Shown here: positions 3,779 to 57,411 of the stretch, piece by piece
Numbering within the stretch: the first letter of the stretch is position 1
How the letters are laid out: every line of letters begins with the position of its first letter
Assembly (NCBI GenBank): GCA_963744145.1
Contig: CAVUSO010000001.1
Coordinates: forward strand, 1 to 64,000
Origin: an uncultured cyanobacterium
Lineage (GTDB): Bacteria > Cyanobacteriota > Cyanobacteriia > Cyanobacteriales > CAWUOF01
DNA length: 64,000 nt
Direction of reading: 5' to 3'
Made by a program: the position numbers and the translations under genes
The notes under the pieces: model-generated
Told to the model about the DNA's origin: nothing
The model's database searches: none
The model's input: the letters and a program-made list of their open reading frames with translations, nothing else

Positions 3779-5881
3779 ATGACCAGAATATTTTTACCAG
3801 GAATATTAGCTGTTGCAACAGTTTTCTGTGGTAATAGGTTTGGCTTGGAAAGGGCGATCGCTGCTGAAACTGTTCCTAGAATTGCCCAACAAAAGCCGGG
3901 AAATGATTCTACTGATCAGACTAAGGCTGATCGTCTTTTGCAGGAAGCAGAAGATTTATATAAAAAACAAACTGTTGAATCTTATCAAGAGGCAATTAGG
4001 AAACTTGCAGAAGCGTTAAAAATTTACCATAATTTAGGCGATCAGAAACATGAGTCTTATATTCTTCTTGGAATTGGTAACATTTACGATAGGTTAGGGG
4101 AAAAACAGCAAGCCTTAACCTACTATAATCAAGCCTTGCCCCTTAGACGGGCGGTGGGCGATCGCCGTGGTGAAGCTAATACACTATTTAATTTGGCTTG
4201 GTTAAAACATAGTCAGGGTAATCTGCAAGAAAGCCTCTCTTCCATTGAAGATGCTATCAAAATCGTGGAAAATCTTCGCACTAAAGTTGTTAGTCAAGAC
4301 CTCCGTGCTTCTTACTTTGCTACCGTGCAAGGTTATTATGAATTTTATATCAACTTACTGATGGAACTGCATCAACAACACCCCACCCAAGGATATGATG
4401 TTAAAGCCTTTGAAACTAGCGATCGCTCGCGGGCGCGTTCCTTAATCGAACTGTTGACAGAAGCTAGAGCTAAAATTACTACTGGTGTAGACCCTCAACT
4501 GTTAGCCCAAGAACAGGATATTAAAAGCCGAATTGATGCCTTTGAAAAGAATAGCCAAAAAATCCTTAATGGTAATTATACCCCAGAACAAAAAGCTAAA
4601 CTCCAACAACAAGAAATTAATCTCTCACAACAATACAATACTATTCGCGACCAAATTCGCATCAGTAGCCCAGCTTATGCTCATTTAAAATATCCTGACC
4701 CCATTACTCTTGCTGATGTTCAACAAAAAATACTGGATGATCATACGGTTTTACTTCAATATTCCCTAGGTAGCGATCGCAGTTACTTATGGTTAGTCAC
4801 CAAAACCGAAATCAGTAGTTATGAATTACCTAAAAAGAGTGACATTGAAAAAGTAGCGCAAGAGTTTATAGATACATTAACCGCAGGTACTACGAGATCC
4901 TTTACTAAATTAGTAATGAAAAGTAGTAGTGATTTAAGTAATGTTATTCTCAAACCAGTTGCCGAAAAATTAGGTAATAAACGCTTATTGATTATTCCTG
5001 ATGGTGGATTACAATATACTCCATTTAGCGCCTTAACTATCCCAGATAAACCTACCATTCCTTTAATTGCCGACCATGAAATAGTCTTATCACCATCAAT
5101 ATCAACTCTAACTGCAATTAGACAAAATACTAATCAAAATATTGCCCCCAAACAATTAGTAGTTTTTGCTGATCCAGTATTTAATATTGATGATGAACGG
5201 TTTGGGAAAAATGTAGCGATTAAACCTAAAAATCCAGGCGATCGCGGATTACCAATTGAAGCCCAACAATTAGAAAGGTCAGCAGCAGCAGCAGGGATTA
5301 AATTGAACAGATTACCATATACCAGAGCAGAAGCGGATAAAATTATTACCCTTGTCAATGAAAATCAACGTCAAGAATTACTAGATTTTAATGCCAATTA
5401 TGATGCGGTTAATAGTTCCAAATTAAATCAATATAAAATAATTCACTTTGCTACTCATGGATTTATTGATACTGAACACCCAGAATTATCCGGTGTAATC
5501 CTGTCTTTAGTAGATAAACAAGGCAATTATCAAAATGGTTATTTGAGATTAAACGATATCTTTAACCTCAGTCTAAATGCAAAATTAGTAGTATTAAGTG
5601 CTTGTGAAACAGGATTGGGAAAAGAAATAAAAGGGGAGGGATTAGTAGGATTAACTAGAGGATTTATGTATGCAGGTACTCCGAGAGTATTAGTTTCATT
5701 ATGGAGTATTAATGACGAATCAACCTCTGAGTGAATGGGGAAATTCTATCAGAAGATGCTCAAGGAAAACTTAACACCTGTCTCTGCATTAAGAGCAACG
5801 CAATTAGAAATGTGGCAACAAGGAAAATGGCAAGCTCCTTACTACTGGGCTGCTTTTACCATGCAAGGTGAATGGCGCTAA
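3779..5881 (+). pseudogene. Signal-peptide TPR-CHAT protease (paralog 2) with an in-frame TGA at 5732-5734
   Basis: Likely start MTRIFLPGILAVA; a single array-type TPR unit; HFATHG and LSAC motifs. After the TGA the same frame continues MGKFYQKML...[12 protein letters not shown] to 5881. Confidence 0.85.
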
Positions 5882-8378: not shown

Positions 8379-8651
8379 CTGTGATCATAAATACTTCGAT
8401 CGCATTTTAGCAAATTTGGAGAAATTATAGTAAAATTTTGATCATGCTAGGTTATTCTGATCGCGCGATCGCTCCTAATAAAGATGAGGTTAATGATTGG
8501 GTCGGAGCAAGTCGAAGTTAGCCCAGAGATGACAGAAAGCAGCTTTTTGAATATATGAAGATTTATGACATTACCGGATGAAATTCCCTACAGGTTAGGT
8601 TATTTTCTCAGTATAGCAATGGAGCTTTTTAGAGATAATATTGGGGTGATT

Positions 8652-11583
8652 ATGACCAGGATATTTTTACCAGGAATATTAGCGGTTGCAACAGTTTTGT
8701 GTGGTAATCGATTTGGGTTGAGTGAGGCGATCGCCACGGAAACTATTCCTAGAATTGCCCAACAACAGTCGGGAAATGATTCTACTGATAAAGCTAAAGC
8801 AGATCGTCTTTTGAAGGAAGTAGAAGATTTATATAAAAAACAAACTGTTGAATCTTATAAAGAGGCAATTAACAAATGTGAAGAAGCATTAAAAATTTAC
8901 CATAGTTTAGGTGATCGGAAAGATGAATCTTATGTTCTTCGTGGAATTGGTAATATTTACAACTTATTAGGGGAAAAACAGCAAGCCTTAACCTACTATA
9001 ATCAATCCTTGCCCCTAACACAGGCGGTGGGCGATCGCGGTGGGGAAGCTAATACCCTCAATAATATTGGTTTAGTTTACGATGATTTAGGGAAAAAACA
9101 GCAAGCCTTAACCTACTATAATCAAGCCTTGCCCCTATTCCGGGCGGTGAGCGATCGCACTGGTGAAGCTACTACTCTCAATAATATTGGTGTTGTTTAC
9201 TCAGATTTAGGGGAAAAACAGCAAGCCTTAACCTACTATAATCAAGCCTTGTCCCTATTCCGGGCGGTGGGCGATCGCACTGGTGAAGCTACTACCCTCT
9301 CTAATATTGGTAAAGTTTACTCAGATTTAGGGGAAAAACAGCAAGCCTTAACCTACTATAATCAAGCCTTGCCCCTTAGACGGGCGGTGGGCGATCGCAC
9401 TGGTGAAGCTACTACCCTCTCTAATATTGGTAAAGTTTACTCAGATTTAGGGGAAAAACAGCAAGCCTTAACCTACTATAATCAAGCCTTGCCCCTAGGA
9501 CGGGCGGTGGGCGATCGCGGTGGTGAAGCTACTACTCTCAATAATATTGGTGCTGTTTACGATGATTTAGGGGAAAAACAGCAAAGCCTTAACCTACTAT
9601 AATCAAGCCTTGCCCCTAACACAGGCGGTGGGCGATCGCGCTGGTGAAGCTAGAACCCTCAATAATATTGGTAAAGTTTACTCAGATTTAGGGGAAAAAC
9701 AGCAAGCCTTAACCTACTATAATCAAGCCTTGCCCCTAGGACGGGCGGTGGGCGATCGCACTGGTGAAGCTACTACCCTCAATAATATTGGTTTTGTTTA
9801 CGATAGTTTAGGGGAAAAACAGCAAGCCTTAACCTACTATAATCAAGCCTTGCCCCTAACACAGGCGGTGGGCGATCGCGGTGGGGAAGCTAATACCCTA
9901 TATAATCTAGCTTGGCTAAAGCGTAGTCAGGGCAATCTGCAAGAAAGCCTCTCTGATATTAAAAGTGCAGTGAATATTATTAAAGACCTCCGCACTAAAA
10001 TCGCCAGTCAAAACCTCCGCACTTCCTACTTTGCTACAGTGCAAGATTATTACAAGTTTTATATTGACTTACTAATGCAATTGCACAAACAGCACCCCTC
10101 TCAAGGATTTGATGCTCAAGCATTAAACGCTAGTGAAAGCTCTCGAGCCCGTGGATTAATTGAACTTCTCACTGAAGCTATAGCTAATATTCGTAAAGGA
10201 GTTGATCCGACTCTATTAAAACAGGAAAAGGAGATAAATTTTAGATTTGATGCTTTTGAAAAAAATCGCCTAAAAATTCTGAGTGGTAATCCTACCCAAG
10301 AACAAAAAGATAAACTGCAACAACAGGAAGAAAAACTCCTTGAAGAATACAAGAATAATCTTGACGAAATCCGTACTAATAGCCCTCGTTACGCCAGTTT
10401 AAAATATCCTCAGCCTCTCACTCTAGCAGAAATTCAACAAAACGTTCTTGATGACAATACTTTGTTACTGCAATATTCTTTGGGAAGCGATCGCAGTTAC
10501 ATCTGGGCAGTAACCAAAACCGAGATTACCAGTTATGAACTCTCCAAAGGAGGAAAAGAAATAGAGAAATTAGCCAAGGATTTTATAAACGAAATAAGTG
10601 GTTCCAGTGGCCCATATAACACTAATCTTCTATCTAAAATTGAAACTGCTAACCAACTCAGTGAAGTAATCCTCAAACCAGTAGCAGCAAAATTAGGTAA
10701 TAAACGTCTCCTCATTGTTGGAGATGGAGTCTTACAAAATATCCCCTTTAGCTTCTTAGCGATACCAGGAAAAACCAAATATATACCCTTATTGGTGGAC
10801 CATGAAATAGTCATGTCCCCATCCGCATCAACTATTTCCTTGATCAGAAGCGATCGCACTACCCACCAAATAGCACCAAAACTATAGCTATATTTGCTGA
10901 TCCTGTATTTGATACAATAATGATCAACGTTTTGGAAATACTCCACCTATCCAGACAGCACCAAATAATCAAAATCTTACACCGTTAGCAAGACTATAGA
11001 AGGAAAATTGAAACGATTAAATCATACCAGAAAGAAGCTGACGGAATTATGGCAACGTTGTTTAGTCAAGACCAGGGGCAAGAATTCTTAGACTTTAGTG
11101 CTAATCTTGAAGCGGTAACTAATTCCAAATTTGAAGCAATACCAAATTATTCATTTAGCTACCCACGCAATTCTTGATAATGAACATCCAGAATTATCAA
11201 AAATTGCTTTATCTAGGTATGATCAGCAAGGAAATCAGCAAAACGATTTATTATTAAAGGATATATTTAACCTTGAATTAAATGCCGAGTTAGTGGTATT
11301 AAGTGCCTGTGAGACTGGATTAGGACAAGACATCAAAGGAGAAGGATTAATCGGATTAACTAGGGGATTTATGTATGCGGGATCTCCAAGGGTTTTAGTA
11401 TCACTATGGAGTGTAGATGATCAAGCTACAGCGGAACTAATGAAGAAATTTTACCAAAAGATGCTGCACGAAAAACTAACCCCAGCCGCAGCTTTGAGAG
11501 CCGCACAAATTGAAATGTGGAAAGAAGAACAATATACTCCCTATTATTGGGCGGCTTTTACTATGCAAGGTGAATGGCGATAA
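8652..11583 (+). pseudogene. Signal-peptide TPR-CHAT protease (paralog 3), frameshifted
   Basis: ORFs 8565..9602, 9610..10887 and 11131..11583 join into one gene near-identical to paralog 1. Indels at about 9584, 10885, 10914, 11032 and 11123 may be consensus errors. Confidence 0.85.
8945..9900 (+). repeat. Coding tandem array of 120-bp TPR units (family A), 8 units
   Basis: 120-bp period with the same consensus as 1..840. Confidence 0.95.
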
Positions 11584-14133: not shown

Positions 14134-14158
14134 GAAAACTTAAATATCGGATTTGATC

Positions 14159-16162
14159 ATGTCAATGAAAGAAAAATTACTCAAAGTTTTGCTCATGTTA
14201 ATGAAAGTAAATTACTCAAAGATTTTATTAGGAACGCTAGTTATTGGAATCCTAATTACAGGTCGTCTAAGTGGAATGTTTCAGTTGTTTGAATGGATGG
14301 CTTTTGATAATTTCCTGCGGATGAGTCCAGCAGAACCTGTTGATAACCGGATGGTGATTATTGGTATTAATGAAGACGATATTCATCGTTTTAAATATCC
14401 AATTCCAGATCAAGCTTTAGCTAAATTATTAATAACTTTACAGGGATATAATCCCGCTGCTATTGGTCTTGATTTAGTTCGGGATTTACCGATTGAGCCA
14501 GGACATCAAGATTTAATAAAAGCTTTTAAAATTGAAAATTTGATCGGGACAAAAAAAGTTTTAGCAGAACCAGGTGATCCGGAAAATGTCATAATTAACC
14601 CACCACCAGAACTTCCTTCTAAGCAAGTAGGGTTTATTTATACATTACTTGATGATGATGGTAATGTGAGACGTTATCTTTTGAGTGAAAGGCAAACGGG
14701 TAAAGAATTTAATATGTCCTTTGCTATTCGTTTGGCAGAAAAATATTTATCGACCAAGGGATATTCCTTAGAAAATCGTCCAACTGATAAATGGACTATG
14801 CAGTTTGTCTCTAAAAATCCCGATCGCTCCATTGAATTAACCCGTTTTCGTTCTCCTAGTGGAGGATATGTAAGCGCTGATGATGGGGGAAGCCAAATTC
14901 TGCTTAATTTTAGAAGTGGCAAAAGTCCTTTTCGGATTATATCTATGAATGATATCGAAACTGGTAAAGTAACCAGAAATGATATCGAAGGGCGTATTAT
15001 CCTTATAGGGATGAGAACTTATAGTGCTAAAGATTTAGTCAATGCTGCCGCGATCGCTAATAGTAATAGAGGGCAAGTTTTTGGGATAGAATTTCAAGCT
15101 CATGCAATTAGTCAAATTATTAGTGCAGTGCTAGATGATCGACCTTTAATCAAAGGTTTACCAGAGTTTTTAGTATATGTATATATGGTAATTTTGGGAA
15201 TAGTTGGGATCTATTTAGGTTCACTTAATAAATTACCGTTGCAGATTTTGCTCATTAACATCATTGTCAACATCGTTTTGATCGGAGTAGGTTATGGATT
15301 TATCCTAATGGGTTGGTGGATTCCAGTTGTACCTTCTTGTTCAAGTCTAACCCTAACTACCATTGCTCTATTGTTTTATCGATATGAGTTTTATCGATAT
15401 GAGCAATATCTGAAAACACAAATTAATGAACGGGATCAAATTATTGATGAAGTATATGCAATGATTCATAATGGACCATTGGCAAATACTAATCTAATTT
15501 TAAGTGAATTTCAAGTTGATACCTCATCCAATCACCAGTTATTAGCAAAGCTGAAAGAGTTAAGACAACAACTGAAGGAAATTCGTCAAAGAATGCGAAA
15601 GGAACTTCTAGATCAAGGAGTTAGTCTATATGTTCAGGATTTAATGATCAGTGTGGTAGAAGAACCTCTCCATGAAATCCTTTATCAAGTGTATTTGAAG
15701 ACGATTTCTCTGGATTTTCCCTGTTTTACTAATATTTACATGGTGCCAACTTTTGAGCAGCTAGATACTTCGTCTTTAAATGATGTACAAAAGAAAGAAA
15801 TTTGTAGATTTTTGGAAGCAGCATTATTCAATGTGGGGATGCACGCTCAAGGAGCAAATAAACTGGAGGTAAACTGTAAACAAGAGCAAGGAATAAACGT
15901 TATTCGGATTGTTGATAATGGTAAAGGTATGGATTTATCTAAATCGGAAGGATGGGGGACATCTCATGCTAAAAAATTAGCAAAGTCTTTAGGTGGTAAA
16001 TTTTCTAATTATACCAATCATGCTGCCCACTGCACTATTTGTGAGTTAACTTGGTCTAGCAAAAAACCTAATTTCTGGAAATTGATGGGTCAGTTTATAA
16101 AAATCAAACTAATAAACCGTAAAGATACCATTGACAAAAAGCATCAGGGATATTTAAGCTAG
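14159..16162 (+). CDS. CHASE2-domain sensor histidine kinase (copy 1)
   Basis: DNRMVIIGINEDD, PAAIGLDLVRD and GIEFQAHAISQI CHASE2 motifs; three TM segments; H-box IHNGPL; N-box EAALFNV; DNGKG. Confidence 0.9.
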   Translation: MSMKEKLLKVLLMLMKVNYSKILLGTLVIGILITGRLSGMFQLFEWMAFDNFLRMSPAEPVDNRMVIIGINEDDIHRFKYPIPDQALAKLLITLQGYNPAAIGLDLVRDLPIEPGHQDLIKAFKIENLIGTKKVLAEPGDPENVIINPPPELPSKQVGFIYTLLDDDGNVRRYLLSERQTGKEFNMSFAIRLAEKYLSTKGYSLENRPTDKWTMQFVSKNPDRSIELTRFRSPSGGYVSADDGGSQILLNFRSGKSPFRIISMNDIETGKVTRNDIEGRIILIGMRTYSAKDLVNAAAIANSNRGQVFGIEFQAHAISQIISAVLDDRPLIKGLPEFLVYVYMVILGIVGIYLGSLNKLPLQILLINIIVNIVLIGVGYGFILMGWWIPVVPSCSSLTLTTIALLFYRYEFYRYEQYLKTQINERDQIIDEVYAMIHNGPLANTNLILSEFQVDTSSNHQLLAKLKELRQQLKEIRQRMRKELLDQGVSLYVQDLMISVVEEPLHEILYQVYLKTISLDFPCFTNIYMVPTFEQLDTSSLNDVQKKEICRFLEAALFNVGMHAQGANKLEVNCKQEQGINVIRIVDNGKGMDLSKSEGWGTSHAKKLAKSLGGKFSNYTNHAAHCTICELTWSSKKPNFWKLMGQFIKIKLINRKDTIDKKHQGYLS

Positions 16163-16235
16163 ATTGGAGATAAAAGATTGGATTAAAAAGTTTTCTTGGG
16201 CTATAATTTGTAACTGTAAATAATGAGTAGGAGTA

Positions 16236-17123
16236 ATGTTGGTTATGAAGCGATTTTTCTGGTTATCTAATAAATCTTTTAACTATAAACTACTGCTCAT
16301 TTGTATCTTTAGTTTATCTCTAACCATCTCCAAGGTAGGTTTGGCTGAATTTCAACCACCATCTGATGCTTCTTCTCCATCTGGTCTATCAGGTTCATCA
16401 AGTAGTAGAGGTGGAAGTTGTGATCAGGATAGAACAACCGAATTAACATTATTAGGTCCGATCAATCCGATCGGATATGTGGGACAATTGAATTCTAATG
16501 AGATCACATTCGCTTGGTTTGTTCCTAGTCAAATTCCTAAGCAAACATCAGTAGCATTTAGGCTTTCTAATTCAACACATGCTATTATATGGCAAACAGA
16601 TTTAAAACTTTCTTCAGGAATTATGACGATTTCTATACCCAAGGGAAAGCTATTAGTTGGACAGAAATATCTCTGGGAAGTGTCTATTTGCTATAATAAT
16701 CTTGATCACCCATCTAAGTTTCTCAGGCTTGGAACAGAGCTAGCGGTTATAGATGTACCATCTAATTTGGCACTAGAACTTGCTAAAACTAAAGACTCTT
16801 TGCAGAGAGCAGCTCTCTATGCAAAAGCTGGTTTATGGTACAATGCTGTTAGCGAAGCTGTAACGACTAAAGAGCAAGAAGAGTCAAAAGTAAAACAATA
16901 CCTAGTAACTCTATTAAAAGATTTAAAAGGAATAGAGGAGAAAAAGTTAAAGGAAAAATTTCCAAATCTTGAAAAAGAAAATTTAGAAACTTTCTGTGAT
17001 TCGACCGCCATCAGGAAAGAGGGTTTCAAAGATGTTTGTGAGCAAGTTAGATCATTAGATAAAATCATCAAAACTCAAGCTTTGCTTTCTGCTCCAATTA
17101 CCCCAGCTAAGCTTGATCATTAA
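16236..17123 (+). CDS. DUF928 family secreted protein
   Basis: Signal peptide, FQPP...SSSRGGSC, TFAWFVP, YLWEVSI, YAKAGLWYNA. Confidence 0.85.
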   Translation: MLVMKRFFWLSNKSFNYKLLLICIFSLSLTISKVGLAEFQPPSDASSPSGLSGSSSSRGGSCDQDRTTELTLLGPINPIGYVGQLNSNEITFAWFVPSQIPKQTSVAFRLSNSTHAIIWQTDLKLSSGIMTISIPKGKLLVGQKYLWEVSICYNNLDHPSKFLRLGTELAVIDVPSNLALELAKTKDSLQRAALYAKAGLWYNAVSEAVTTKEQEESKVKQYLVTLLKDLKGIEEKKLKEKFPNLEKENLETFCDSTAIRKEGFKDVCEQVRSLDKIIKTQALLSAPITPAKLDH

Positions 17124-17725: not shown

Positions 17726-18304
17726 ATGGTATTAGTAGCGGAACAAGTCAAGCAAAGGAAAAAACTATTTACTGTAGACGAATATCATAAGATGGGTGAG
17801 GTTGGGATTATTCATCCAGATGAGAGAGTAGAACTGATTGAAGGAGAGATTTTTACAATGGCAGCAATGGGTAGACCCCATAGAGCAGGGTTACTTAGGC
17901 TAAATAAAATTTTATCTAAAGAACTAGGTGAACTTGCTACAGTTGGCATTCAAGTTCCGATTATTTTGGATGATCTATCAGAACCAGAACCAGATGTATC
18001 GTTACTGATACCTCGTGCTGACTATTATGCTGGGATAGACCCTAATCCTAAAGATGTCTATTTGTTGATTGAGGTATCCCATACCACCCTTGACTATGAC
18101 CATGATAAAGCAATTACATACTCAAAGTCTGGGATAAAAGAACTTTGGATCGTAAATATTACAGCAGATTTAATAGAAGTTTATCGCGACCCTTCAGCTC
18201 AGGGTTATCAAACTGTTTTGGAGTTTAGACGCGGTGATTCTATTTCACCTTTAGCTTTTCCTGATCTGGTTTTGTCTGTTGATGAACTTTTGGGCATCGA
18301 TTAG
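17726..18304 (+). CDS. Uma2 (DUF820) family endonuclease
   Basis: FTVDEYHKM, RVELIEGEI, SEPEPD, LLIEVS, GIKELWIVN. Confidence 0.92.
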   Translation: MVLVAEQVKQRKKLFTVDEYHKMGEVGIIHPDERVELIEGEIFTMAAMGRPHRAGLLRLNKILSKELGELATVGIQVPIILDDLSEPEPDVSLLIPRADYYAGIDPNPKDVYLLIEVSHTTLDYDHDKAITYSKSGIKELWIVNITADLIEVYRDPSAQGYQTVLEFRRGDSISPLAFPDLVLSVDELLGID

Positions 18305-18596
18305 CGATCGCTCTCCATGAACAAGCGATGTCCCTAAAGAGTTGTTACGCGATCGCTCTCCATTAAACCAAAACGCGATCGCATTGTGACTTTGAAAGAG
18401 TATCACTCGACCTCACCCAAATTGTAAAGTTATGTAAACAAAAGCGTCGTCGCCTGCGTTTTTGGAGATTTGAATTAGGCGATCGCATTCAAACTATGTC
18501 AAATCAGATTAAATAATTATGTTATTGGTTATCGCTGGGAAATGGGGTTTAAAATCTGAGCATCAATAAAACAAATTAACCTTGATTTTTAGAGAT

Positions 18597-21500
18597 ATGG
18601 TTATGGGTCTAAATATTTATAAGTTTAATGTACGGGCGTGCTTAGGGGCTTTAGCTTATGGAGTTATTTGGTCTAGTCCTTTAATTATAATTGATAGGGC
18701 GATCGCTGTTGATGGGGTTCAAAGAGCGATACCTCTGGGTCGTCGTGATATGATCGCACAACAGCCAAGTTCACCAAATATAGATAAAGCTAATGCTGAT
18801 CGTCTTTTTGAAGAAGGACTGCAACTATATAAGCAACAGACAATTGAGTCTCTAAAAGAGGCGATTAAGAAGTGGGAAGAAGCAGGAAAAATCTATCATG
18901 ACCTGGGCGATCGCTCTGGTGAAGCTAATACCCTCAACAATATCGGTCTCGTTTACAACTCATGGGGGGAAAAGCAGAAAGCCTTAGACTTCTACAATCA
19001 GTCTTTGCCCCTCTCTCGGGCGGTGGGCGATCGCTCTGGTGAAGCTAATACCCTCAACAATATCGGCAATGTTTACAACGATTTGGGGGAAAAGCAGAAA
19101 GCCTTAGACTTCTACAATCAGTCTTTGCCCCTCAAACGGGCGGTGGGCGATCGCTCTGGTGAAGCTAATACCCTCGGTAATATCGGCAATGTTTACAACT
19201 CATGGGGGGAAAAGCAGAAAGCCTTAGACTTCTACAATCAGTCTTTGCCCCTCAAACGGGCGGTGGGCGATCGCTCTGGTGAAGCTAAGACCCTCAACAA
19301 TATCGGCAATGTTTACAACTCATGGGGGGAAAAGCAGAAAGCCTTAGACTTCTACAATCAGTCTTTGCCCCTCTTTCGGGCGGTGGGCGATCGCTCTGGT
19401 GAAGCTAATACCCTCATTGGTATCGGCAATGTTTACAACTCATGGGGGGAAAAGCAGAAAGCCTTAGACTTCTACAATCAGTCTTTGCCCCTCTCTCGGG
19501 CGGTGGGCGATCGCTCTGGTGAAGCTAATACCCTCATTGGTATCGGTCTCGTTTACAACGATTTGGGGGAAAAGCAGAAAGCCTTAGACTTCTACAATCA
19601 GTCTTTGCCCCTCTTTCGGGCGGTGGGCGATCGCTCTGGTGAAGCTAATACCCTCATTGGTATCGGCAATGTTTACAACTCATGGGGGGAAAAGCAGAAA
19701 GCCTTAGACTTCTACAATCAGTCTTTGCCCCTCTCTCGGGCGGTGGGCGATCGCTCTGGTGAAGCTAATACCCTCAACAATATCGGCATTGTTTACAACG
19801 ATTTGGGGGAAAAGCAGAAAGCCTTAGACTTCTACAATCAGTCTTTGCCCCTCTCTCGGGCGGTGGGCGATCGCTCTGTTGAAGCTAAGACCCTCAACAA
19901 TATCGGCAATGTTTACAACGATTTGGGGGAAAAGCAGAAAGCCTTAGACTTCTACAATCAGTCTTTGCCCCTCTTTTGGGCGGTGGGCGATCGCTCTGGT
20001 GAAGCGTCTACCCTCATTGGTATCGGCAATGTTTACAACTCATGGGGGGAAAAGCAGAAAGCCTTAGACTTCTACAATCAGTCTTTGCCCCTCTCTCGGG
20101 CGGTGGGCGATCGCTCTGGTGAAGCGTCTACCCTCATTGGTATCGGTCTCGTTTACAACGATTTGGGGGAAAAGCAGAAAGCCTTAGACTTCTACAATCA
20201 GTCTTTGCCCCTCTCTCGGGCGGTGGGCGATCGCTCTGGTGAAGCTAATACCCTCAACAATATCGGTCTCGTTTACAACGATTTGGGGGAAAAGCAGAAA
20301 GCCTTAGACTTCTACAATCAGTCTTTGCCCCTCTCTCGGGCGGTGGGCGATCGCTCTGGTGAAGCTAATACCCTCAACAATATCGGCTTGGTTTACGACG
20401 ATTTGGGGGAAAAGCAGAAAGCCTTAGACTTCTACAATCAGTCTTTGCCCCTCTCTCGGGCGGTGGGCGATCGCTCTGGTGAAGCTAATACCCTCATTGG
20501 TATCGGCAATGTTTACAACTCATGGGGGGAAAAGCAGAAAGCCTTAGACTTCTACAATCAGTCTTTGCCCCTCTCTCGGGCGGTGGGCGATCGCTCTGGT
20601 GAAGCGTCTACCCTCGGTAATATCGGCAATGTTTACTCAGATTTGGGGGAAAAGCAGAAAGCCTTAGACTTCTACAATCAGTCTTTGCCCCTCTCTCGGG
20701 CGGTGGGCGATCGCTCTGGTGAAGCGTCTACCCTCAACAATATCGGCAGTGTTTACTCAGATTTGGGGGAAAAGCAGAAAGCCTTAGACTTCTACAATCA
20801 GTCTTTGCCCCTCTCTCGGGCGGTGGGCGATCGCACTGGTGAAGCTATTACCCTTTTTAATCAAGCTCAGCTAAAGCGTAGTCAGGGGAATCTGCAAGAA
20901 AGCCGCTCAGACATTGAAAATGCAGTACATATTATTGAAGACCTTCGCACTAAAATTGCTAGCCCAGACTCCCGCATTTCCTACTTTGCTACAGTGCAAG
21001 ATTATTACAAGTTTTATATTGACTTACTCATGCAGTTGCACAAACAACACCCCTCCCAAGGATTTGATGCTCAAGCACTAGAAGCTAGCGATCGCTCTCG
21101 GGCCCGTGGATTAATTGAACTCTTAACAGAAGCTAAAGCTAAAATTACTACTGGAGTAGACCCGAAATTATTAGAACAGGAACAAAATATACAATTCAAA
21201 ATTGATGCTTTTGAAAAAAATCGCCTAAAAATTCTCAATGGTAATCCTACCCAAGAACAAAAAGATGAACTGCAACAACAGGAAGAAAAACTCCTTGAAG
21301 AATACAAGAATAATCTTGACGAAATCCGTACTAATAGCCCTAGTTACGCCAGTTTAAAATATCCTCAGCCTCTCACTCTAGCAGAAATTCAACAAAACGT
21401 TCTTGATGACAATACTTTGTTGCTGCAATATTCTTTGGGAAGCGATCGCAGTTACATCTGGGCAGTAACCAAAACCGAGATTACCAGTTATGAACTCTCC

Positions 21501-22562
21501 AAAGGAGAAAAAGAAATAGAGAAATTAGCCAAGGCTTTTATAAACGAAATAAGTGGTTCCAGTGGCCCCTATGACGCTAATCTTCTATATAACATTAAAA
21601 CTGCTAACCAACTAAGTGAAGCAATCCTCAAACCAGTAGCAGCAAAATTAGGTAATAAACGTCTACTCATTGTTGGAGATGGAGTCTTACAAACTATCCC
21701 ATTTAGCGTCTTAGCGACACCAGGAAAAACCCAATATACGCCCTTACTGCTAGACCATGAAATAGTCATGTCCCCATCCGCATCTACCATCTCTATTATC
21801 AGAAGCGATCGCGCCACCCACCAAATAGCATCAAAACTATTAGCGATGTTTGCCGATCCTGTATTTAATAACAATAATGATCAACGTTTTGGTAATACTC
21901 CATCGAGCCATACAGCAGAAAATAATCAAGACAGAGGTAGAACAGGGGAATTAGAGAGAGCTATAAGAGATATTGGAGGAAACTTAAAACGATTACCTTA
22001 TACCAGAACAGAAGCTGATAGCATTATGGCCATATTGGATAGTAAAGACCAGGGGCAAGAATTATTAGATTTTAGTGCTAATCTTAATGCTGTTAATAGT
22101 CCCACGCTCAACCAATATCAAATTGTCCATTTCGCTACTCACGGTATTATTGATAATGAACATCCAGAATTATCAGGAATTGTTTTATCTCTGTATGATC
22201 AGCAAGGAAATCCTCAAAACGGCTATTTACGATTGAATGAGATATTTAACCTCCAATTAAATGCTGAATTAGTAGTCTTAAGTGCTTGTAAGACAGGATT
22301 AGGAACAGAAGTAAAAGGAGAAGGATTAGTCGGATTAACTAGGGGATTTATGTATGCGGGATCTCCAAGGGTTTTAGTATCACTATGGAGTGTAGAAGAT
22401 AAAGCTACGGCGGAACTAATGAAGAAATTTTACCAAAAGATGCTGCAAGAAAAACTAACCCCAGCAGCAGCTTTGAAAGCCGCACAATTTGATATGTGGA
22501 ACGAGAAAAAATATACCCCCTATCATTGGGCGGCTTTTACTATGCAAGGTGAATGGCGATAA
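18597..22562 (+). CDS. Signal-peptide TPR-CHAT protease (paralog 4), 16-unit TPR array, intact
   Basis: Leader ending AIA|V; 16 TPR units; HFATHG and VVLSAC catalytic motifs. Exact start uncertain (18582, 18597 or 18603). Confidence 0.93.
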   Translation: MVMGLNIYKFNVRACLGALAYGVIWSSPLIIIDRAIAVDGVQRAIPLGRRDMIAQQPSSPNIDKANADRLFEEGLQLYKQQTIESLKEAIKKWEEAGKIYHDLGDRSGEANTLNNIGLVYNSWGEKQKALDFYNQSLPLSRAVGDRSGEANTLNNIGNVYNDLGEKQKALDFYNQSLPLKRAVGDRSGEANTLGNIGNVYNSWGEKQKALDFYNQSLPLKRAVGDRSGEAKTLNNIGNVYNSWGEKQKALDFYNQSLPLFRAVGDRSGEANTLIGIGNVYNSWGEKQKALDFYNQSLPLSRAVGDRSGEANTLIGIGLVYNDLGEKQKALDFYNQSLPLFRAVGDRSGEANTLIGIGNVYNSWGEKQKALDFYNQSLPLSRAVGDRSGEANTLNNIGIVYNDLGEKQKALDFYNQSLPLSRAVGDRSVEAKTLNNIGNVYNDLGEKQKALDFYNQSLPLFWAVGDRSGEASTLIGIGNVYNSWGEKQKALDFYNQSLPLSRAVGDRSGEASTLIGIGLVYNDLGEKQKALDFYNQSLPLSRAVGDRSGEANTLNNIGLVYNDLGEKQKALDFYNQSLPLSRAVGDRSGEANTLNNIGLVYDDLGEKQKALDFYNQSLPLSRAVGDRSGEANTLIGIGNVYNSWGEKQKALDFYNQSLPLSRAVGDRSGEASTLGNIGNVYSDLGEKQKALDFYNQSLPLSRAVGDRSGEASTLNNIGSVYSDLGEKQKALDFYNQSLPLSRAVGDRTGEAITLFNQAQLKRSQGNLQESRSDIENAVHIIEDLRTKIASPDSRISYFATVQDYYKFYIDLLMQLHKQHPSQGFDAQALEASDRSRARGLIELLTEAKAKITTGVDPKLLEQEQNIQFKIDAFEKNRLKILNGNPTQEQKDELQQQEEKLLEEYKNNLDEIRTNSPSYASLKYPQPLTLAEIQQNVLDDNTLLLQYSLGSDRSYIWAVTKTEITSYELSKGEKEIEKLAKAFINEISGSSGPYDANLLYNIKTANQLSEAILKPVAAKLGNKRLLIVGDGVLQTIPFSVLATPGKTQYTPLLLDHEIVMSPSASTISIIRSDRATHQIASKLLAMFADPVFNNNNDQRFGNTPSSHTAENNQDRGRTGELERAIRDIGGNLKRLPYTRTEADSIMAILDSKDQGQELLDFSANLNAVNSPTLNQYQIVHFATHGIIDNEHPELSGIVLSLYDQQGNPQNGYLRLNEIFNLQLNAELVVLSACKTGLGTEVKGEGLVGLTRGFMYAGSPRVLVSLWSVEDKATAELMKKFYQKMLQEKLTPAAALKAAQFDMWNEKKYTPYHWAAFTMQGEWR
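18905..20850 (+). repeat. Coding tandem array of 120-bp TPR units (family B), 16 full units
   Basis: Invariant gaaaagcagaaagccttagacttctacaatcagtctttgcccctc every 120 bp. Confidence 0.98.
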
Positions 22563-23365: not shown

Positions 23366-23701
23366 ATGAAATTATTTCCCTCTAAATCAACCATTTTTCT
23401 ACTTCTATTAGGTTCTCTTAGCAGTTCCGTTTTTAGTCTTCCAGCTCATGCTAATGAGGTTAGTTCATTTCCCGATGGCTTTCGTCCGATTCATCATCAA
23501 GAGGATGCGATCGCGATCAGAAAGCCGAAATTTCTAGGTCAAAACCGGACTCATGAGCTAAGGGATGGAGTCAAAAATCCCAACCATTACAGACCAATCG
23601 GTCAGCGTGTAGAACATCAAGAAGTCAAAAATCGCGACCATTATAACCCTATCCGTCGGCGCGTAGAACATCAAGATGGTAATTGGGGTTTCCGACGTTA
23701 G
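23366..23701 (+). CDS. Small secreted protein with two 18-aa repeats (copy 2)
   Basis: Paralog of 12500..12838. Confidence 0.75.
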   Translation: MKLFPSKSTIFLLLLGSLSSSVFSLPAHANEVSSFPDGFRPIHHQEDAIAIRKPKFLGQNRTHELRDGVKNPNHYRPIGQRVEHQEVKNRDHYNPIRRRVEHQDGNWGFRR

Positions 23702-23880: not shown

Positions 23881-24270
23881 ATGATGACTCAAGCTAAGTT
23901 ATTACAATTTCGATTTAGTCAACTAATTCTGATGGTATTAGTCGTTATGCCAATGGTGACATTATCTGCTCAGAAAACCCTAGCTATACCATTAGACCAA
24001 TACCTTCGTAAGGCATTAGATGGGATGCTTGGGCCGGAACCTAATCCTGACCCCCCAACAAATGTTCCTGCTTCACAACCCCCTGGTCAATACCCTACTT
24101 CTCCAAATAATTCATTACCACCTTATACATATCCTCCAAATTATCCACAACCTTATTATCCAGTTCCAAAACCTTATTATCCAGGTTATCAACAATGGAA
24201 TAACCGACCACATTATTACCTTTACCCTTCTATCCATTATCATTACCCAGTTTATCCAAGGCGTTGGTAA
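23881..24270 (+). CDS. Pro/Tyr-rich secreted protein (copy 2)
   Basis: Paralog of 13018..13428 with one fewer 21-bp repeat. Confidence 0.7.
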   Translation: MMTQAKLLQFRFSQLILMVLVVMPMVTLSAQKTLAIPLDQYLRKALDGMLGPEPNPDPPTNVPASQPPGQYPTSPNNSLPPYTYPPNYPQPYYPVPKPYYPGYQQWNNRPHYYLYPSIHYHYPVYPRRW

Positions 24271-25231: not shown

Positions 25232-27175
25232 ATGGATTTTATCATGTCAATGAAAGAAAAATTACTCAAAGTTTTGCTCATGTCAATGAAAGTAAATTAC
25301 TCAAAGATTTTATTAGGAACGCTAGTTATTGGAATCCTAACTACAGGTCGTCTAAGTGGAATGTTTCAGTTGTTTGAATGGATGGCTTTTGATAATTTCC
25401 TGCGGATGCGTCCAGCAGAACCTGTTGATAACCGGATTGTGATTATTGGTATTAATGAAGACGATATTCATCGTTTTAAATATCCAATTCCAGATCAAGC
25501 TTTAGCTAAATTATTAATAACTTTACAGGGATATAATCCCGCTGCTATTGGTCTTGATTTAGTTCGGGATTTACCGATTGAGCCAGGACATCAAGATTTA
25601 ATAAAAGCTTTTAAAATTGAAAATTTGATCGGGATAAAAAAAGTTTTACTAGAACCAGGTGATCCGGAAAATGTCATAATTAACCCACCACCAGAACTTC
25701 CTTCTAAGCAAGTAGGGTTTATTGATACATTACTTGATGATGATGGTAATGTGAGACGTTATCTTTTGAGTGAAATGCAACCGGGTAAAGAATTTAATAT
25801 GTCCTTTGCTATTCGTTTGGCAGAAAAATATTTATCGACCAAGGGATATTCCTTAGAAAATAACTCAACTGATAAATGGACTATGCAGTTTGTCTCTAAA
25901 AATCCCGATCGCTCCATTGAATTAACCCGTTTTCGTTCTCATAGTGGAGGATATGTAAGCGCTGATGATAGGGGAAACCAAATTCTGCTTAATTTTAGAA
26001 GTAGTCCTTTTCGGATTATATCTATGAATGATATCGAAACTGGTAAAGTAACCAGAAATGATATCGAAGGGCGTATTATCCTTATAGGGATGAAAACTCA
26101 TAGTGCTAAAGATTTAGTCAATGCTGCCGCGATCGCTAATAGTAATAGAGGGCAAGTTTTTGGGATAGAATTTCAAGCTCATGCAATTAGTCAAATTATT
26201 AGTGCAGTGCTAGATGATCGACCTTTAATCAAAGGTTTACCAGAGTTTTTAGTATATGTATATATAGTAATTTTGGGAATAGTTGGTATCTATTTAGGTT
26301 CACTTAATAAATTACCGTTGCAGATTTTGCTCATTAACATCATTGTCAACATCGTTTTGATCGGAGTAGGTTATGGATTTATCCTAATGGGTTGGTGGAT
26401 TCCAGTTGTACCTTCTTGTTCAAGTCTAACCCTAACTACCATTACTCTATTGTTTTATCGATATGAGCAATATCTGAAAACACAAATTAATGAACGGGAT
26501 CAAATTATTGATGAAGTATATTCAATGATTCATAATGGACCATTGGCAAATACTAATCTAATTTTAAGTGAATTTCAAGTTGATACCTCATCCAATCACC
26601 AGTTATTAGCAAAGCTGAAAGAGTTAAGACAACAACTGAAGGAAATTCGTCAAAGAATGCGAAAGGAACTTCTAGATCAAGGAGTTAGTCTATATGTTCA
26701 GGATTTAATGATCAGTGTGGTAGAAGAACCTCTCCATGAAATCCTTTATCAAGTGTATTTGAAGACGATTTCTCTGGATTTTCCCTGTTTTACTAATATT
26801 TACATGGTGCCAACTTTTGAGCAGCTAGATACTTCGTCTTTAAATGATGTACAAAAGAAAGAAATTTGTAGATTTTTGGAAGCAGCATTATTCAATGTGG
26901 GGATGCACGCTCAAGAAGCAAATAAACTGGAGGTAACCTGTAAACAAGAGCAAGGAATAAACGTTATTCGGATTGTTGATAATGGTAAAGGTATGGATTT
27001 ATCTAAATCGGAAGGATGGGGGACAGCCCAGGCTGAAAAATTAGCAAAGTCTTTAGGTGGTAAATTTTCTAATTACACCAATCAGACTGCTCACTACACT
27101 ATTTGTGAGTTAACTTGGTCTAGCAAAAAAACTAACCTCTGGAAATTAATGGGTCGGTTTATAAAATCAAACTAA
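25232..27175 (+). CDS. CHASE2-domain sensor histidine kinase (copy 2)
   Basis: Paralog of 14159..16162 with the same motifs. Confidence 0.9.
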   Translation: MDFIMSMKEKLLKVLLMSMKVNYSKILLGTLVIGILTTGRLSGMFQLFEWMAFDNFLRMRPAEPVDNRIVIIGINEDDIHRFKYPIPDQALAKLLITLQGYNPAAIGLDLVRDLPIEPGHQDLIKAFKIENLIGIKKVLLEPGDPENVIINPPPELPSKQVGFIDTLLDDDGNVRRYLLSEMQPGKEFNMSFAIRLAEKYLSTKGYSLENNSTDKWTMQFVSKNPDRSIELTRFRSHSGGYVSADDRGNQILLNFRSSPFRIISMNDIETGKVTRNDIEGRIILIGMKTHSAKDLVNAAAIANSNRGQVFGIEFQAHAISQIISAVLDDRPLIKGLPEFLVYVYIVILGIVGIYLGSLNKLPLQILLINIIVNIVLIGVGYGFILMGWWIPVVPSCSSLTLTTITLLFYRYEQYLKTQINERDQIIDEVYSMIHNGPLANTNLILSEFQVDTSSNHQLLAKLKELRQQLKEIRQRMRKELLDQGVSLYVQDLMISVVEEPLHEILYQVYLKTISLDFPCFTNIYMVPTFEQLDTSSLNDVQKKEICRFLEAALFNVGMHAQEANKLEVTCKQEQGINVIRIVDNGKGMDLSKSEGWGTAQAEKLAKSLGGKFSNYTNQTAHYTICELTWSSKKTNLWKLMGRFIKSN

Positions 27176-32029: not shown

Positions 32030-34555
32030 ATGCTCATCAATTACCGACAAATAATTATAGAAAAAAACCAACCTAGACCGCGATCGCCAAAATTAAAATT
32101 AATCAGTACCGCTGTAAATCTGGGGTGCTTCACCGTTTTTTTATTCAACACTTGTCTATCTGCTTCAGCCCAAATTACGATCGATCAGACTTTACCAAAT
32201 AATAGTAGTGTGATGATCAATGGTAATCTGATCCAGATTGAGGGAGGTACTAAAGCTGGTAGAAATTTATTCCATAGCTTTAGTGAATTTTCGGTTAATC
32301 CTGGAACAGAAGTATATTTTAATAACTCTCTAGATATTCAAAATATTTTTACTCGGATTACAGGTAATACCATTTCAAATATTAACGGATTAATTCAGAC
32401 TAATGGTACTGCTAATTTATTTTTCCTTAACCCTAATGGGATTATTTTTGGTCCGAATGCGGCTTTAAATATTGGTGGTTCATTTATTGGTAGTAGTGCC
32501 AGTAGTATCAAATTTTCTGATGGTAGTCAGTTTAGCGCAAAACCTACTAATTTACCCTCACCATTATTAACCATAAATACGCCGATCGGGTTACAATTTG
32601 GTGCTAATCCAGGTCAGATTATTAATCAATCAACAGTGAGTATTCCCAATGTTAGTCAACCGGTGGGATTAGCAGTACCATCAGATCAAACCTTAGCATT
32701 GGTGGGAGGAGATATATTACTCCAAGGAGGAAATTTAACCGCATCGGGAGGAAGAATCGAGTTAAGTGCGGTGGGAGACAATAATTCAGTTAGTCTCACT
32801 CCCCTGGGAAATGGAGCAGGTTTTAGCTTGGGGATTCAAGATTTACAAAATTTACGTGATATCCAACTATCAAAGGGTGCATTAGTCAATACCAGTGGTA
32901 CAGGAGGGGGAGATATTCAGCTGCAAGGAAAACAAATTACGCTGCAAGATGGAGCAAGTTTGTTAGGATTGACTTTAGGTGATCTACCCGGAGGAACAAT
33001 TACAGTTAATGCTACAGGATCATTAGCAATAGCGGGGATCGGAGATTATGAAAATATAGTCAGAAAATTTGTGACAGGAACAATTGGATTGACTGATTTA
33101 CATAGCGGATTATTTGCTACTACATTAGGTACTGGTAAAGCTGGTAATGTGATTATTAACACACCCCAATTTACAGCAGATAATGGTGGTTATGTATCTG
33201 CGACTACAGTTAGTTCAGGTCAGGGTGGAACGATCATCGTAAATGCAGGATTGGTGCAATTAAATTCCTCATTTATTGCCACAGGAACTTCAGTAAATGG
33301 GGGAAATTCTGGGGATGTAACTGTTAATACTAATAAATTTATAGCTGATAATAATGCCATTATCACTACTTCTAGCTTTAGTACTGGTCAAGGAGGAAAT
33401 TTAAGTATTAACGCCCAGGATTCAGTTGAATTAATTGGAGTTAATCCCTTTACTATTATTCCCAATGTTCAAGGTTTTACTGGATTTTTTAGTAGTGGTT
33501 TAGGAGCTGGAAAAGCTGGTAATTTAGAGATCAATACCAAAACCTTATCTATGCTCAGTGGTTCCGATGTAGCTGCAAGTGTATTTGGTACTGGAGATGG
33601 GGGAAATATTACCATTAGAGCGACAAATTTGGTGGAATTAATTGGCAAATCTCCGAATGGTGAAGCTTTAACTTCGATCAATACTCTCACTCAACCTGGT
33701 TCGACGGGAAAAGGTGGAAATTTAGTGATTCAAACTCCAAATTTAACTCTGCAAGATGGAGCGACTTTAAGTGTGCGATCGCGCGGTTCAGGTAGCACTG
33801 GAAATTTACAAGTAATTGCCAATACCGTAAAAATTATCAATCAAAGTGGAATTGAAGGAACAGCAGTAGCTGGAGAAGGAGCCAACTTAGATTTTAATAC
33901 AAACACCTTACAAATAACTCAAAATAGTTTTATTTCTGCTACTGCTGGGACAGAAGGTGGACCAGGAAATGGTGGGAATATTAACATTAATACTAATACT
34001 TTAGGACTTTTAGAAAATAGTAGTATTGTCGCTAATGCTTTTTCTGGAAAAGGAGGAAATATTACCATTAATACTCAAGGAAATTTTATTTCAGCCGATA
34101 GTAAAATTACCGCTAGTTCAACTCTAGGGGTCAGTGGAGTAATTGCTATTAACACTCCGGAAATTGACCCAACTAAGGGATTAGTTAACTTACCCCAGAA
34201 TTTTACTAATGCGAGATCATTAATTAGTTCTAGTTGCGATCGGGCTCAAAGTAATCAGTTTACCATTACCGGAAAAGGAGGATTACCCCCTGATCCGAAT
34301 CAGACCCTGTTAGGAACAGCAGTTTGGAGAGATTTGCGATCGCTAAATTTAGGACGGGTCAGTCAGACTACTGATCAAACTAATCAATTTGACGTAACCT
34401 TGAGAAAAAAATTTCCACCGAGGATTTTAGAAGCAAATGGATGGATAATAGATCAACAGGGAAAAGTTAAGTTAGTTGTAGATACTACTCAAGGAAGTAT
34501 TCCCCATATTTGGTATTTTCCGGTAGAATGTGGGGGAATTTCCCGAAGCTCTTGA
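32030..34555 (+). CDS. Filamentous-hemagglutinin N-terminal domain (TpsA-like) exoprotein 1
   Basis: AQIT.D, NLFHSFSEFS, NLFFLNPNGIIFG; G.GGNI.I beta-helix repeats; FTITGKGGLP tail. Confidence 0.93.
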   Translation: MLINYRQIIIEKNQPRPRSPKLKLISTAVNLGCFTVFLFNTCLSASAQITIDQTLPNNSSVMINGNLIQIEGGTKAGRNLFHSFSEFSVNPGTEVYFNNSLDIQNIFTRITGNTISNINGLIQTNGTANLFFLNPNGIIFGPNAALNIGGSFIGSSASSIKFSDGSQFSAKPTNLPSPLLTINTPIGLQFGANPGQIINQSTVSIPNVSQPVGLAVPSDQTLALVGGDILLQGGNLTASGGRIELSAVGDNNSVSLTPLGNGAGFSLGIQDLQNLRDIQLSKGALVNTSGTGGGDIQLQGKQITLQDGASLLGLTLGDLPGGTITVNATGSLAIAGIGDYENIVRKFVTGTIGLTDLHSGLFATTLGTGKAGNVIINTPQFTADNGGYVSATTVSSGQGGTIIVNAGLVQLNSSFIATGTSVNGGNSGDVTVNTNKFIADNNAIITTSSFSTGQGGNLSINAQDSVELIGVNPFTIIPNVQGFTGFFSSGLGAGKAGNLEINTKTLSMLSGSDVAASVFGTGDGGNITIRATNLVELIGKSPNGEALTSINTLTQPGSTGKGGNLVIQTPNLTLQDGATLSVRSRGSGSTGNLQVIANTVKIINQSGIEGTAVAGEGANLDFNTNTLQITQNSFISATAGTEGGPGNGGNININTNTLGLLENSSIVANAFSGKGGNITINTQGNFISADSKITASSTLGVSGVIAINTPEIDPTKGLVNLPQNFTNARSLISSSCDRAQSNQFTITGKGGLPPDPNQTLLGTAVWRDLRSLNLGRVSQTTDQTNQFDVTLRKKFPPRILEANGWIIDQQGKVKLVVDTTQGSIPHIWYFPVECGGISRSS

Positions 34556-34599
34556 GCAAAATCATCTCGATTTTGAAACTAACCATTTAGTTTAAGTAT

Positions 34600-37347: not shown

Positions 37348-37433
37348 GGTAACCTTCCTGGAGGAACACATATACCAAGGAAATTTTGCCAAGATTTGGT
37401 ATGATCCAGTAGAGTTTGATCTCTTTAATTCAG

Positions 37434-57409: not shown

Positions 57410-57411
57410 TT

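Follow-up and report, generated by a model that had tools for sequence, protein, structure and literature searches.

How can the units of a protein repeat stay identical to the base over most of their length and still differ from one another at a handful of codons? The question is raised by a 120-bp repeat array in the genome of an uncultured cyanobacterium of the order Cyanobacteriales (assembly GCA_963744145.1), in which 16 tetratricopeptide repeat (TPR) units precede a caspase-like CHAT domain within a single gene. We analysed this array in a stretch of 64,000 nucleotides, here called the window, which corresponds to positions 1 to 64,000 of contig CAVUSO010000001.1 (C1 in what follows). 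An earlier reading of the letters alone, the original prediction, had proposed that unequal crossover or short-patch gene conversion reassorts variants at five slots of the unit and so makes a reprogrammable binding surface on a protease. We regard it as probable that this is a real and intact 16-unit TPR arm of a CHAT protease, homogenised by recombination and carrying reassorted alleles at the positions of its groove, with which it would bind peptide, probably outside the cytoplasm.

Variation in the array is confined to five slots

Tandem Repeats Finder (TRF) reports a single array (18904-20854; period 120, 16.3 copies, 92% matches, 0% indels, score 3111), which lies in frame inside one long open reading frame (ORF) that continues into an intact domain, and an in-frame cut yields the 16 units of 120 bp that had been predicted. 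Across these units 25 of the 120 nucleotide columns vary, and 23 of the 25 fall in five slots, located at columns 19-24, 31-36, 40-45, 52-60 and 109-111 of the unit (1-based). The two substitutions that are not assigned to slots are singletons, G to T in column 13 and C to T in column 111, both in unit 9, and the 90 framework columns show 0 differences in 15 of the 16 units and two in the remaining one, so that the units are indeed identical outside the slots apart from two single substitutions, as had been claimed.

Within the unit the slots are residues 8, 11-12, 15, 18-20 and 37, equivalent to TPR positions 2, 5-6, 9, 12-14 and 31, where residue 7 of the unit is taken as TPR position 1 because positions 1-28 of the Pfam TPR_1 profile align to residues 435-462 of the protein. 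The alleles are N, K or S at position 2; NN, GN or IG at positions 5-6; N, L, I or S at position 9; NSW, NDL, DDL or SDL at positions 12-14; and S, K or F at position 31, exactly as listed beforehand, and eight of the 40 residues of each unit are recurrently variable. These alleles combine into 14 distinct slot haplotypes among the 16 units, including the three that had been cited as examples: N-IG-N-NSW-S in units 5, 7 and 14, S-IG-L-NDL-S in unit 11 and K-NN-N-NSW-F in unit 4. Averaged over all pairs, the units are 91.7% identical in nucleotides and, across 640 aa, 88.8% identical in amino acids (at least 80%), above the threshold of >= 85% identity over >= 100 aa by which Dyrka et al. (2014) recognise high internal conservation (HIC).

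Diversity was compared by the Nei-Gojobori method between the 30 framework codons and the 10 codons that lie in slots or next to them. The proportions of synonymous (pS) and nonsynonymous (pN) differences were 0.000 and 0.0036 in the framework, versus 0.38 and 0.31 in the slot and adjacent codons, values for which the method is ill-suited, since the alleles are multi-base and the units recombine. Minimum spanning trees of the alleles contain 30 base steps in the 30 slot columns versus 2 in the 90 framework columns. The slot alleles are discrete: they lie up to 3-4 bases apart, intermediate codons are absent, and two of the slots are accompanied by a synonymous change linked to them in the preceding codon, Ala for slot 1 and Gly for slot 3. 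Such a pattern is the signature that one would expect of frequent recombination between units, which homogenises the frame, retains variation at few sites and lets the adjacent bases hitch-hike.

Slot alleles are reassorted between units

One may also consider an origin of the slot variants by independent point mutations under positive selection, along a simple duplication tree and without recombination. Some alleles are only one step apart, as this explanation would have it (N/K in slot 1, N/I/S in slot 3, N/D at position 12 and S/F in slot 5). However, when the slots are treated as multi-state characters, nine of the ten slot pairs are incompatible with any tree that lacks recombination or recurrence, and all four gametes are present in 70 of the 171 pairs of biallelic sites, even though slots 1 to 4 are separated by just six invariant bases. 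Permutation tests find no association (p > 0.4) for eight of the ten slot pairs, the weak associations of slots 1 and 5 (p 0.035) and slots 3 and 4 (p 0.048) being uncorrected. Alleles 3-4 bases away from the consensus recur, with their linked synonymous changes and without intermediate codons, and since a recurrent origin of such alleles is implausible, a single duplication tree can be rejected; point mutation without recombination is thus a very unlikely account of the array. The four-gamete analysis bears out the reassortment that had been proposed: the slot alleles appear to be reassorted almost freely by breakpoints within units, and therefore each unit shows its own combination. We read this as concerted evolution with diversity retained at binding residues, and infer from the sequences both a selection for diversity and the mechanism of recombination.

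The consensus unit has AAT or AAC (Asn) codons at five slot residues, Asn being found in 8-13 of the 16 units at each of them, and the variant alleles replace this Asn by hydrophobic, small or charged residues. These codons would suit a diversity-generating retroelement (DGR), or a similar mutator that acts on AAY codons, and DGRs are described from cyanobacteria (PMC7517822, PMC10907252). Against such a mutator, the consensus base is A at just 11 of the 25 variable columns (14 of 25 are not A) and the alleles are few, discrete and recurrent; moreover, reverse transcriptases are matched at three places in the genome (3.19, 5.01 and 5.09 Mb), all of them distant from any array, and copies of the unit occur in the genome only as coding arrays, so that there is no template repeat. 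With distant reverse transcriptases, no template repeat and no adenine specificity, a DGR variable region was excluded, and we consider mutator activity extremely improbable.

Paralogous arrays and the wider family

At least eight paralogues in the source genome share this C-terminal module; the window region contains five of them, two in broken form. These two lie at 8565-11583 and 3692-5878 of the window: in one the reading frame breaks near 9600 and the CHAT part contains six stops, and the other has a single TGA. The closest paralogue (C1:7624566-7629830, 27 units) has an N-terminal cap identical to that of the array gene at 150 of 153 nt and differs from it at 37 of 536 C-terminal codons, whereas its units differ from the array framework at 9-16 of the 90 columns. 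More generally, framework differences number 0-2 within the array versus 9-18 of 90 columns to the 57 units of five paralogous arrays, and framework pS is 0 within the array, 0.05-0.18 within the five other arrays and 0.20-0.33 between arrays. The units are thus nearer to one another than to the units of paralogous arrays, which is what concerted evolution produces, and from the pS values within and between arrays, together with the flanks of the closest paralogue, it appears that each array is homogenised on its own and turns over much faster than its flanks. The alleles IG, GN, Ser of slot 1, SW and K are found, as nucleotide strings, in none of the 57 paralogous units, and simple import from those five arrays is therefore not their source.

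The TPR-CHAT family comprises at least 7717 proteins at E <= 1e-50 (of 8000 candidates scored), the named members being cyanobacterial "CHAT domain-containing" or "tetratricopeptide repeat" proteins, and 18 of 31 related genomes, the source genome included, have a match at E <= 1e-30. All homologue statistics given here (entropy, invariant residues, hydrophobic segment) cover the 120 best homologues, among which 18 proteins have arrays of at least six units with a mean identity of at least 75%. In these 18 arrays the within-array entropy peaks at TPR positions 2 (1.70), 9 (1.67), 31 (1.62) and 38 (1.39), followed by 13 (1.24), 5 (1.00), 39 (0.95) and 12 (0.83), that is, at the same slots and at two loop residues that are fixed in the array studied here. 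As far as these sequences tell, slot variation characterises the family and the genome rather than one gene. Elsewhere in the same genome, a WD40 array (C1:3402389-3404079, 12 units) shows recurrent variation at only four residues, with a fifth variable in a single unit, and an array of 34-residue TPRs (C1:4669830-4670873) behaves likewise, varying mostly in helix A.

A relative carries, at locus L031 (6803-11695, genome G011), a gene for a WD40-CHAT protein of 1631 aa whose C-terminal module is 45% identical to that of the TPR-CHAT proteins. Since the modules are homologous, the same protease module has been joined there to a different repeat sensor; the gene adjoins a Peptidase_C14 caspase gene.

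These comparisons also bear on the possibility that the array was recently amplified from one unit and that the slots vary since they are exposed and unconstrained, with neither selection for diversity nor a ligand code behind them. The array, which is among the longest of those we looked at, is the most homogeneous of them in DNA (92% matches versus 78-88% in paralogues and relatives' loci), the slot codons do not exceed a pN/pS of 1, and exposed helix-A positions are described as the most variable ones in TPRs generally (PMC1261162); the homogeneity, the ratio and the exposure would agree with a recent amplification and unconstrained slots. Nevertheless, with 0 synonymous changes in the framework, neutral mutation cannot give at least 30 steps in 30 slot columns, and a process that homogenises the frame would erase neutral slot variation too. 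Identical multi-base alleles, moreover, stand on different backgrounds, and the same positions vary in the 18 independent arrays. An amplification of this kind seems to us unlikely, though it is no less probable than any other alternative considered here.

The slots on the TPR solenoid

An AlphaFold2 single-sequence model of residues 63-802 (predicted local distance difference test, pLDDT, 88.5) is a regular solenoid of paired 17-residue helices, in which helix A comprises unit residues 3-19 and helix B residues 23-39. Residues 8, 11, 12, 15, 18 and 19 are spaced i, i+3, i+4, i+7, i+10 and i+11 and, given the helix limits of the model and 100 degrees per residue, occupy a single arc of 120 degrees, on the side that faces away from the conserved hydrophobic residues 10, 13 and 17. 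The four slots at TPR positions 2, 5-6, 9 and 12-14 are thus on one face of helix A, and slot 5 (position 31) is near the C-terminal end of helix B.

Which side of the solenoid this face belongs to can be judged from better known TPR proteins. The most variable TPR positions according to Magliery & Regan (PMC1261162) are 2, 5, 9, 12, 13, 33 and 34, on the concave face, and HOP is described there as binding its peptides via positions 2, 5, 6, 9, 12 and 13; all six HOP contact positions are among the array's 10 variable residues of 40 (chance 5.5e-5). Among solved proteins the 40-residue TPRs of LGN/Pins come nearest (phmmer E 5e-64; Foldseek TM score up to 0.85, 28% identity). Their ligands are reported to lie in the inner groove, where the Asn of Leu-Gly-Asn triplets gives bidentate hydrogen bonds to the peptide backbone (PMC3438535), and this Asn aligns with slot 3 of the array. 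Slots 1-4 would accordingly correspond to concave-groove contact positions, their common face being read from the helix limits of the model and its assignment to the concave side resting on homology to HOP and LGN/Pins. The claim that the slots map to the groove therefore holds in part: it stands for slots 1-4, the ones that this placement covers, which coincide with the HOP contact positions (plus position 14). By analogy with these proteins, the groove may be expected to bind peptide.

A predicted caspase-like protease, probably exported

The coordinates of the gene, of the parts of its product and of two recurrent neighbours are collected in Table 1. In the 1326-aa protein Pfam finds TPR_12 (E 2e-163, 15 stretches) and TPR_1 (E 6.5e-105, 16 stretches) over residues ~70-790, and CHAT at residues 1007-1324. 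Only TPR families and CHAT were found by Pfam in this protein, with no NACHT or NB-ARC domain, so that it is not a NOD-like receptor (NLR) or other receptor of the STAND class (signal transduction ATPases with numerous domains). An entry of a public protein collection corresponds to the product at 100% identity over 1319 aa and starts at ATG 18603.

Table 1. Features of the array gene and its upstream neighbours (window coordinates)
Feature	Position	Strand	Basis or remark
CHASE2 sensor gene, recurrent DUF928 neighbour	14153..16162	+	Pfam
DUF928 gene, recurrent CHAT neighbour	16236..17123	+	Pfam
TPR-CHAT gene	18582..22562	+	Longest ORF, 1326 aa from TTG 18582
N-terminal hydrophobic segment (ORF residues 19-37, Lys/Arg just before)	18636..18692	+	Kyte-Doolittle
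N-terminal capping helix pair of the TPR solenoid, diverged	18786..18905	+	In-frame unit cut and model
16 x 120-bp (40-aa) TPR units	18906..20825	+	TRF and in-frame cut
C-terminal capping unit, diverged; repeat match persists over its first 29 nt	20826..20945	+	
Helical linker from solenoid to protease domain	20946..21599	+	AlphaFold2 model helices H46-H191
CHAT domain (caspase-like, clan CD), residues 1007-1324	21600..22553	+	PF12770, E 3.8e-70
Putative dyad, His1187 and Cys1236	22140-22142 and 22287-22289	+	Homologue alignment

His1183, His1187 and Cys1236 are shared without exception by the aligned C-termini of the homologues (120 of 120). For residues 750-1326 an AlphaFold2 model was made from an 80-row alignment (pLDDT 85; predicted TM score, pTM, 0.86) and compared with solved structures by Foldseek, in which the C-terminal half came closest to Csx29, the TPR-CHAT protein of type III-E CRISPR (8d9h_E, E 1e-13), followed by DdvA (8rw5, 7.6e-11; also 8rot), separase, SAVED-CHAT and gingipains; a sequence search of the CHAT part against solved structures gave no match. 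Because of the CHAT profile match, the invariant His and Cys and the Foldseek matches, the assignment to CHAT caspase-like proteases is sound, as the original prediction had it in placing the array on a protease, and catalysis is predicted.

A scan by Kyte-Doolittle hydropathy alone finds a hydrophobic 15-mer (>= 1.6) within the first 70 residues of 88 of the 120 homologues, including the array protein (1.84), with basic residues ahead of it. This N-terminal segment would be a Sec signal or a signal anchor, and the protein is probably exported.

Reads and assembly

Repeats of this kind can also be distorted during assembly, and one could suppose that the array is real but that its unit number, its order or part of its slot combinations were put together from different units. 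Arrays of this sort are described as unreliably rendered by short-read assembly (PMC12222747), no contig of four public runs spans the array, and one contig of run X1 skips 14 units. In addition, both ends of contig C1 (window 1-2517; C1:7634077-7634710) fall within a related array of 120-bp TPR units that belongs to another TPR-CHAT gene. The period of this array is out of register across the junction, and its upstream part shifts frame at least three times; either this gene has decayed or the assembly lacks a clean closure at this point. On the other hand, the genome is assembled in 4 contigs, one of them of 7.63 Mb, and the array, 18.9 kb inside C1, keeps its frame with 0 indels and leads into an intact domain. 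Run X1, which may be the source sample, matches the flanks exactly; its pieces account for 25 of 30 bins, and 20 out of 32 match to at least 99%. The skipping contig of this run joins 18938 to 20619 with 17 framework-column mismatches, which make it another type of array; we set it aside as evidence, as coming from another array or from a graph artefact. Chimeric details of this sort are in our estimate improbable, slightly more so than a recent amplification.

Two further runs, X2 and X3, have flanks 98-99% identical to the window. A 104-nt contig of X2 on unit 16 has four differences, all four in slots 3 and 4, which give a slot combination absent from the array, and a 150-nt contig of X3 has one difference, which is in slot 5. 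These contigs, which could come from other units, hint that close relatives differ at the slots on the same framework.

Gene neighbourhood

For genome-wide counts of DUF928, CHAT and CHASE2 we used profiles built for this analysis. Of 17 DUF928 ORFs in the source genome 11 have a CHAT ORF at a distance of 6 kb or less (1.6 expected under random placement, and never more than 5 in 500 trials) and nine are within 3 kb of a CHASE2 ORF, and DUF928 is present in 57 of 61 genomes of the order. At the array locus both DUF928 and CHASE2 lie within a few kb of the CHAT gene, as in what we call the CHAT-DUF928-CHASE2 module. This module recurs in the window (14153-17123, 25232-27172 and 40073-43560) and in the relatives' loci L024, L025, L026 and L034. 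The DUF928 proteins have in common a signal peptide and, in the N-terminal region, a motif whose Pro and Arg are invariant in 7 of 7 sequences; in the literature searched, a single paper mentions DUF928. Judging by gene order, the array protein may work together with the DUF928 and CHASE2 proteins. A complex prediction for the TPR array (685 aa) with residues 36-295 of the neighbouring DUF928 protein, made with a 7-row alignment, gave a score of 0.00, which carries no weight either way.

Three tandem genes with TPS domains (two-partner secretion, of the filamentous-haemagglutinin N-terminal type) occupy 32030-39908, and a diverged TPR-CHAT gene and a further DUF928 gene follow directly after them. 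By their domains, the CHASE2, DUF928 and TPS neighbours are of extracytoplasmic types.

Between the DUF928 gene and the array gene lies a gene of the Uma2 family (putative restriction endonuclease-like; 17726-18304), which PADLOC matches to the candidate system PDC-S03 (E 6e-12); Uma2-family genes stand repeatedly beside TPR-CHAT genes (also in L023 and at L035:15149-15724). For the 13 proteins around the array gene PADLOC gave generic TPR models only, and NCBIfam matches were generic TPR ones or below the cut-off. Just 3' of the array gene, on the same strand, are two small ORFs (23366-23701 and 23881-24270), each with an N-terminal hydrophobic segment and neither with a Pfam match; one is internally repetitive and His-rich and the other Pro/Tyr-rich. 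Further away, on the - strand, there are three large genes with RTX (HemolysinCabind), DUF4347 and beta-helix domains (51867-63934), which have internal repeats of 108 and 216 bp. Among the 41 window ORFs scanned there was no gasdermin or Cas7-11/gRAMP gene (Pfam), as would be expected beside gasdermin-activating or CRISPR-linked TPR-CHAT defence proteases, and no extracytoplasmic function (ECF) sigma gene.

A proposed rewritable groove on a predicted protease

How might such an array work? In the reading that we prefer, the 16-unit solenoid would serve as sensor arm or substrate-binding arm in a caspase-like CHAT protease that belongs to a filamentous cyanobacterium. Frequent recombination among the units, be it unequal crossover, slippage or gene conversion, would keep the frame identical in the manner of concerted evolution, and old multi-nucleotide alleles would last only at about eight residues per unit. 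These variable residues would form a stripe along helix A that lines the inner groove and touches an extended peptide as in other TPR proteins, and Asn at the five consensus positions would resemble the ladder of Asn residues with which LGN/Pins bind the peptide backbone. The groove, which most likely holds a polypeptide that is cut by the C-terminal His/Cys protease or that controls it, would then be rewritten or retuned whenever units are gained, lost or converted. The protein would probably act outside the cytoplasm, alongside the DUF928 and CHASE2 proteins, and a precedent for an extracytoplasmic TPR+CHAT sensor is DdvA of Myxococcus (PMC6061681).

Several observations weigh against this reading. 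The pN/pS ratio at the slot codons is about 0.8, which does not speak for positive selection. None of the Logan contigs of public runs spans the array, so that its unit number and order are those given by the assembly; at both ends of contig C1 there is a frame-broken 120-bp array, which means that such arrays can trouble this assembly; and what is seen of behaviour in populations comes from the two short contigs of X2 and X3, possibly derived from other units. There is no near-identical orthologue in the collections searched, where the best protein outside the source genome is 57% identical, and a 48-nt string of the framework had 0 exact matches in collections of metagenome and genome contigs, from which records of the source genome were possibly left out. 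As for the neighbours, only three of ten relatives' loci have TPR-CHAT beside DUF928 and a CHASE2-cyclase gene, two of these three having in addition, further on, a gene of the metallo-beta-lactamase fold (Apyc1-like) and one for a cNMP-binding (cyclic nucleotide-binding) MscS channel.

A bolder extension, which we put forward as speculation with little probability of being right, is that the protein is a modular and rewritable extracellular peptide reader. Each unit would read, via five slots on an Asn ladder, a short piece of an extended polypeptide, and CHAT would cut the target and feed the CHASE2 sensor, perhaps as part of self/non-self recognition at the surface of filamentous cyanobacteria. 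New unit "words" would be made by intra-array breakpoints between slots that are 6 bases apart, perhaps through independent repair of mismatch clusters in heteroduplex, and possible targets would be a TPS exoprotein, a surface protein of foreign origin, or DUF928, cut at the conserved Arg of its N-terminal region. If true, such an extracellular reader would be distinct from cytoplasmic NLR-type immunity.

Returning to the proposed recombination-homogenised peptide-binding arm, the array ranks among the cleanest natural cases of a scaffold homogenised to the base whose presumed binding residues keep old and freely reassorted alleles. It offers a natural template for the design of modular peptide-binding TPRs, and it points to the uncharacterised CHAT-DUF928-CHASE2 module.

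Comparison with known systems

Several proteins resemble parts of this system. Among solved proteins, the TPRs of LGN, GPSM2 and Pins (PDB 3sf4, 3ro2, 4wnd, 6hc2 and 4a1s) have the same 40-residue units and consensus and are the best match, but they belong to eukaryotic polarity proteins with eight diverged units, without internal homogenisation and without a protease. Csx29 (of Craspase) and DdvA share the order of TPR followed by CHAT, and in DdvA the TPR+CHAT part is extracytoplasmic (PMC6061681); in contrast to the array protein they have few and diverged TPRs, and their sequence identity to it is 12-14%. A HIC regime in TPR-CHAT proteins was not described in the literature searched, although the supplements of Dyrka et al. 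(2014) and Hu et al. (2017) may list bacterial TPR cases, and Kaur et al. 2020 (PMC7159879) mention neither CHAT nor CHASE2.

Within the same phylum, the highly repetitive WD40 proteins of cyanobacteria (Hu et al. 2017, PMC5587647) are described as having near-identical repeats with diverse predicted interaction hotspots, and a cluster of CHASE2, DUF928 and a repeat protein is reported there from Nostoc punctiforme. They differ from the present case in having a beta-propeller fold, and that paper does not deal with TPR-CHAT arrays. A similar regime has been suggested for WD and TPR repeats of bacterial NLRs (Dyrka et al. 2020, bioRxiv 10.1101/2020.01.06.895854).

The closest parallel in evolutionary terms is provided by the fungal NLRs, in which, as the original prediction stated, high internal conservation is described (PMC4986451). 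As in the array, the HIC repeats of TPR, ANK and WD40 type in these receptors (Podospora hnwd; PMC4986451, PMC12222747) are described as more than 85% identical and as varying at few positions of the concave face, and their evolution is ascribed to unequal crossover, shuffling of units and diversifying selection. For the fungal TPR motifs Dyrka et al. (2014, PMC4986451) report repeat-number polymorphism, positive selection and variable sites on the concave side; the polymorphism and the selection have been shown in Podospora, whereas the array is known from one assembly. The array protein further differs in the lack of a NACHT or NB-ARC domain, in its C-terminal CHAT effector, in units of 40 rather than 42 residues, in its bacterial host and in its probable export. 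The original prediction thus proves largely right as to reassortment, the positions of slots 1-4 and the protease, and overstated as to novelty, since the regime was known already. The regime itself is not new and no new principle is established; it rather appears that the evolutionary regime of the fungal NLRs is also at work in a large bacterial family, that of TPR-CHAT proteases, which do without an NTPase and are probably exported.

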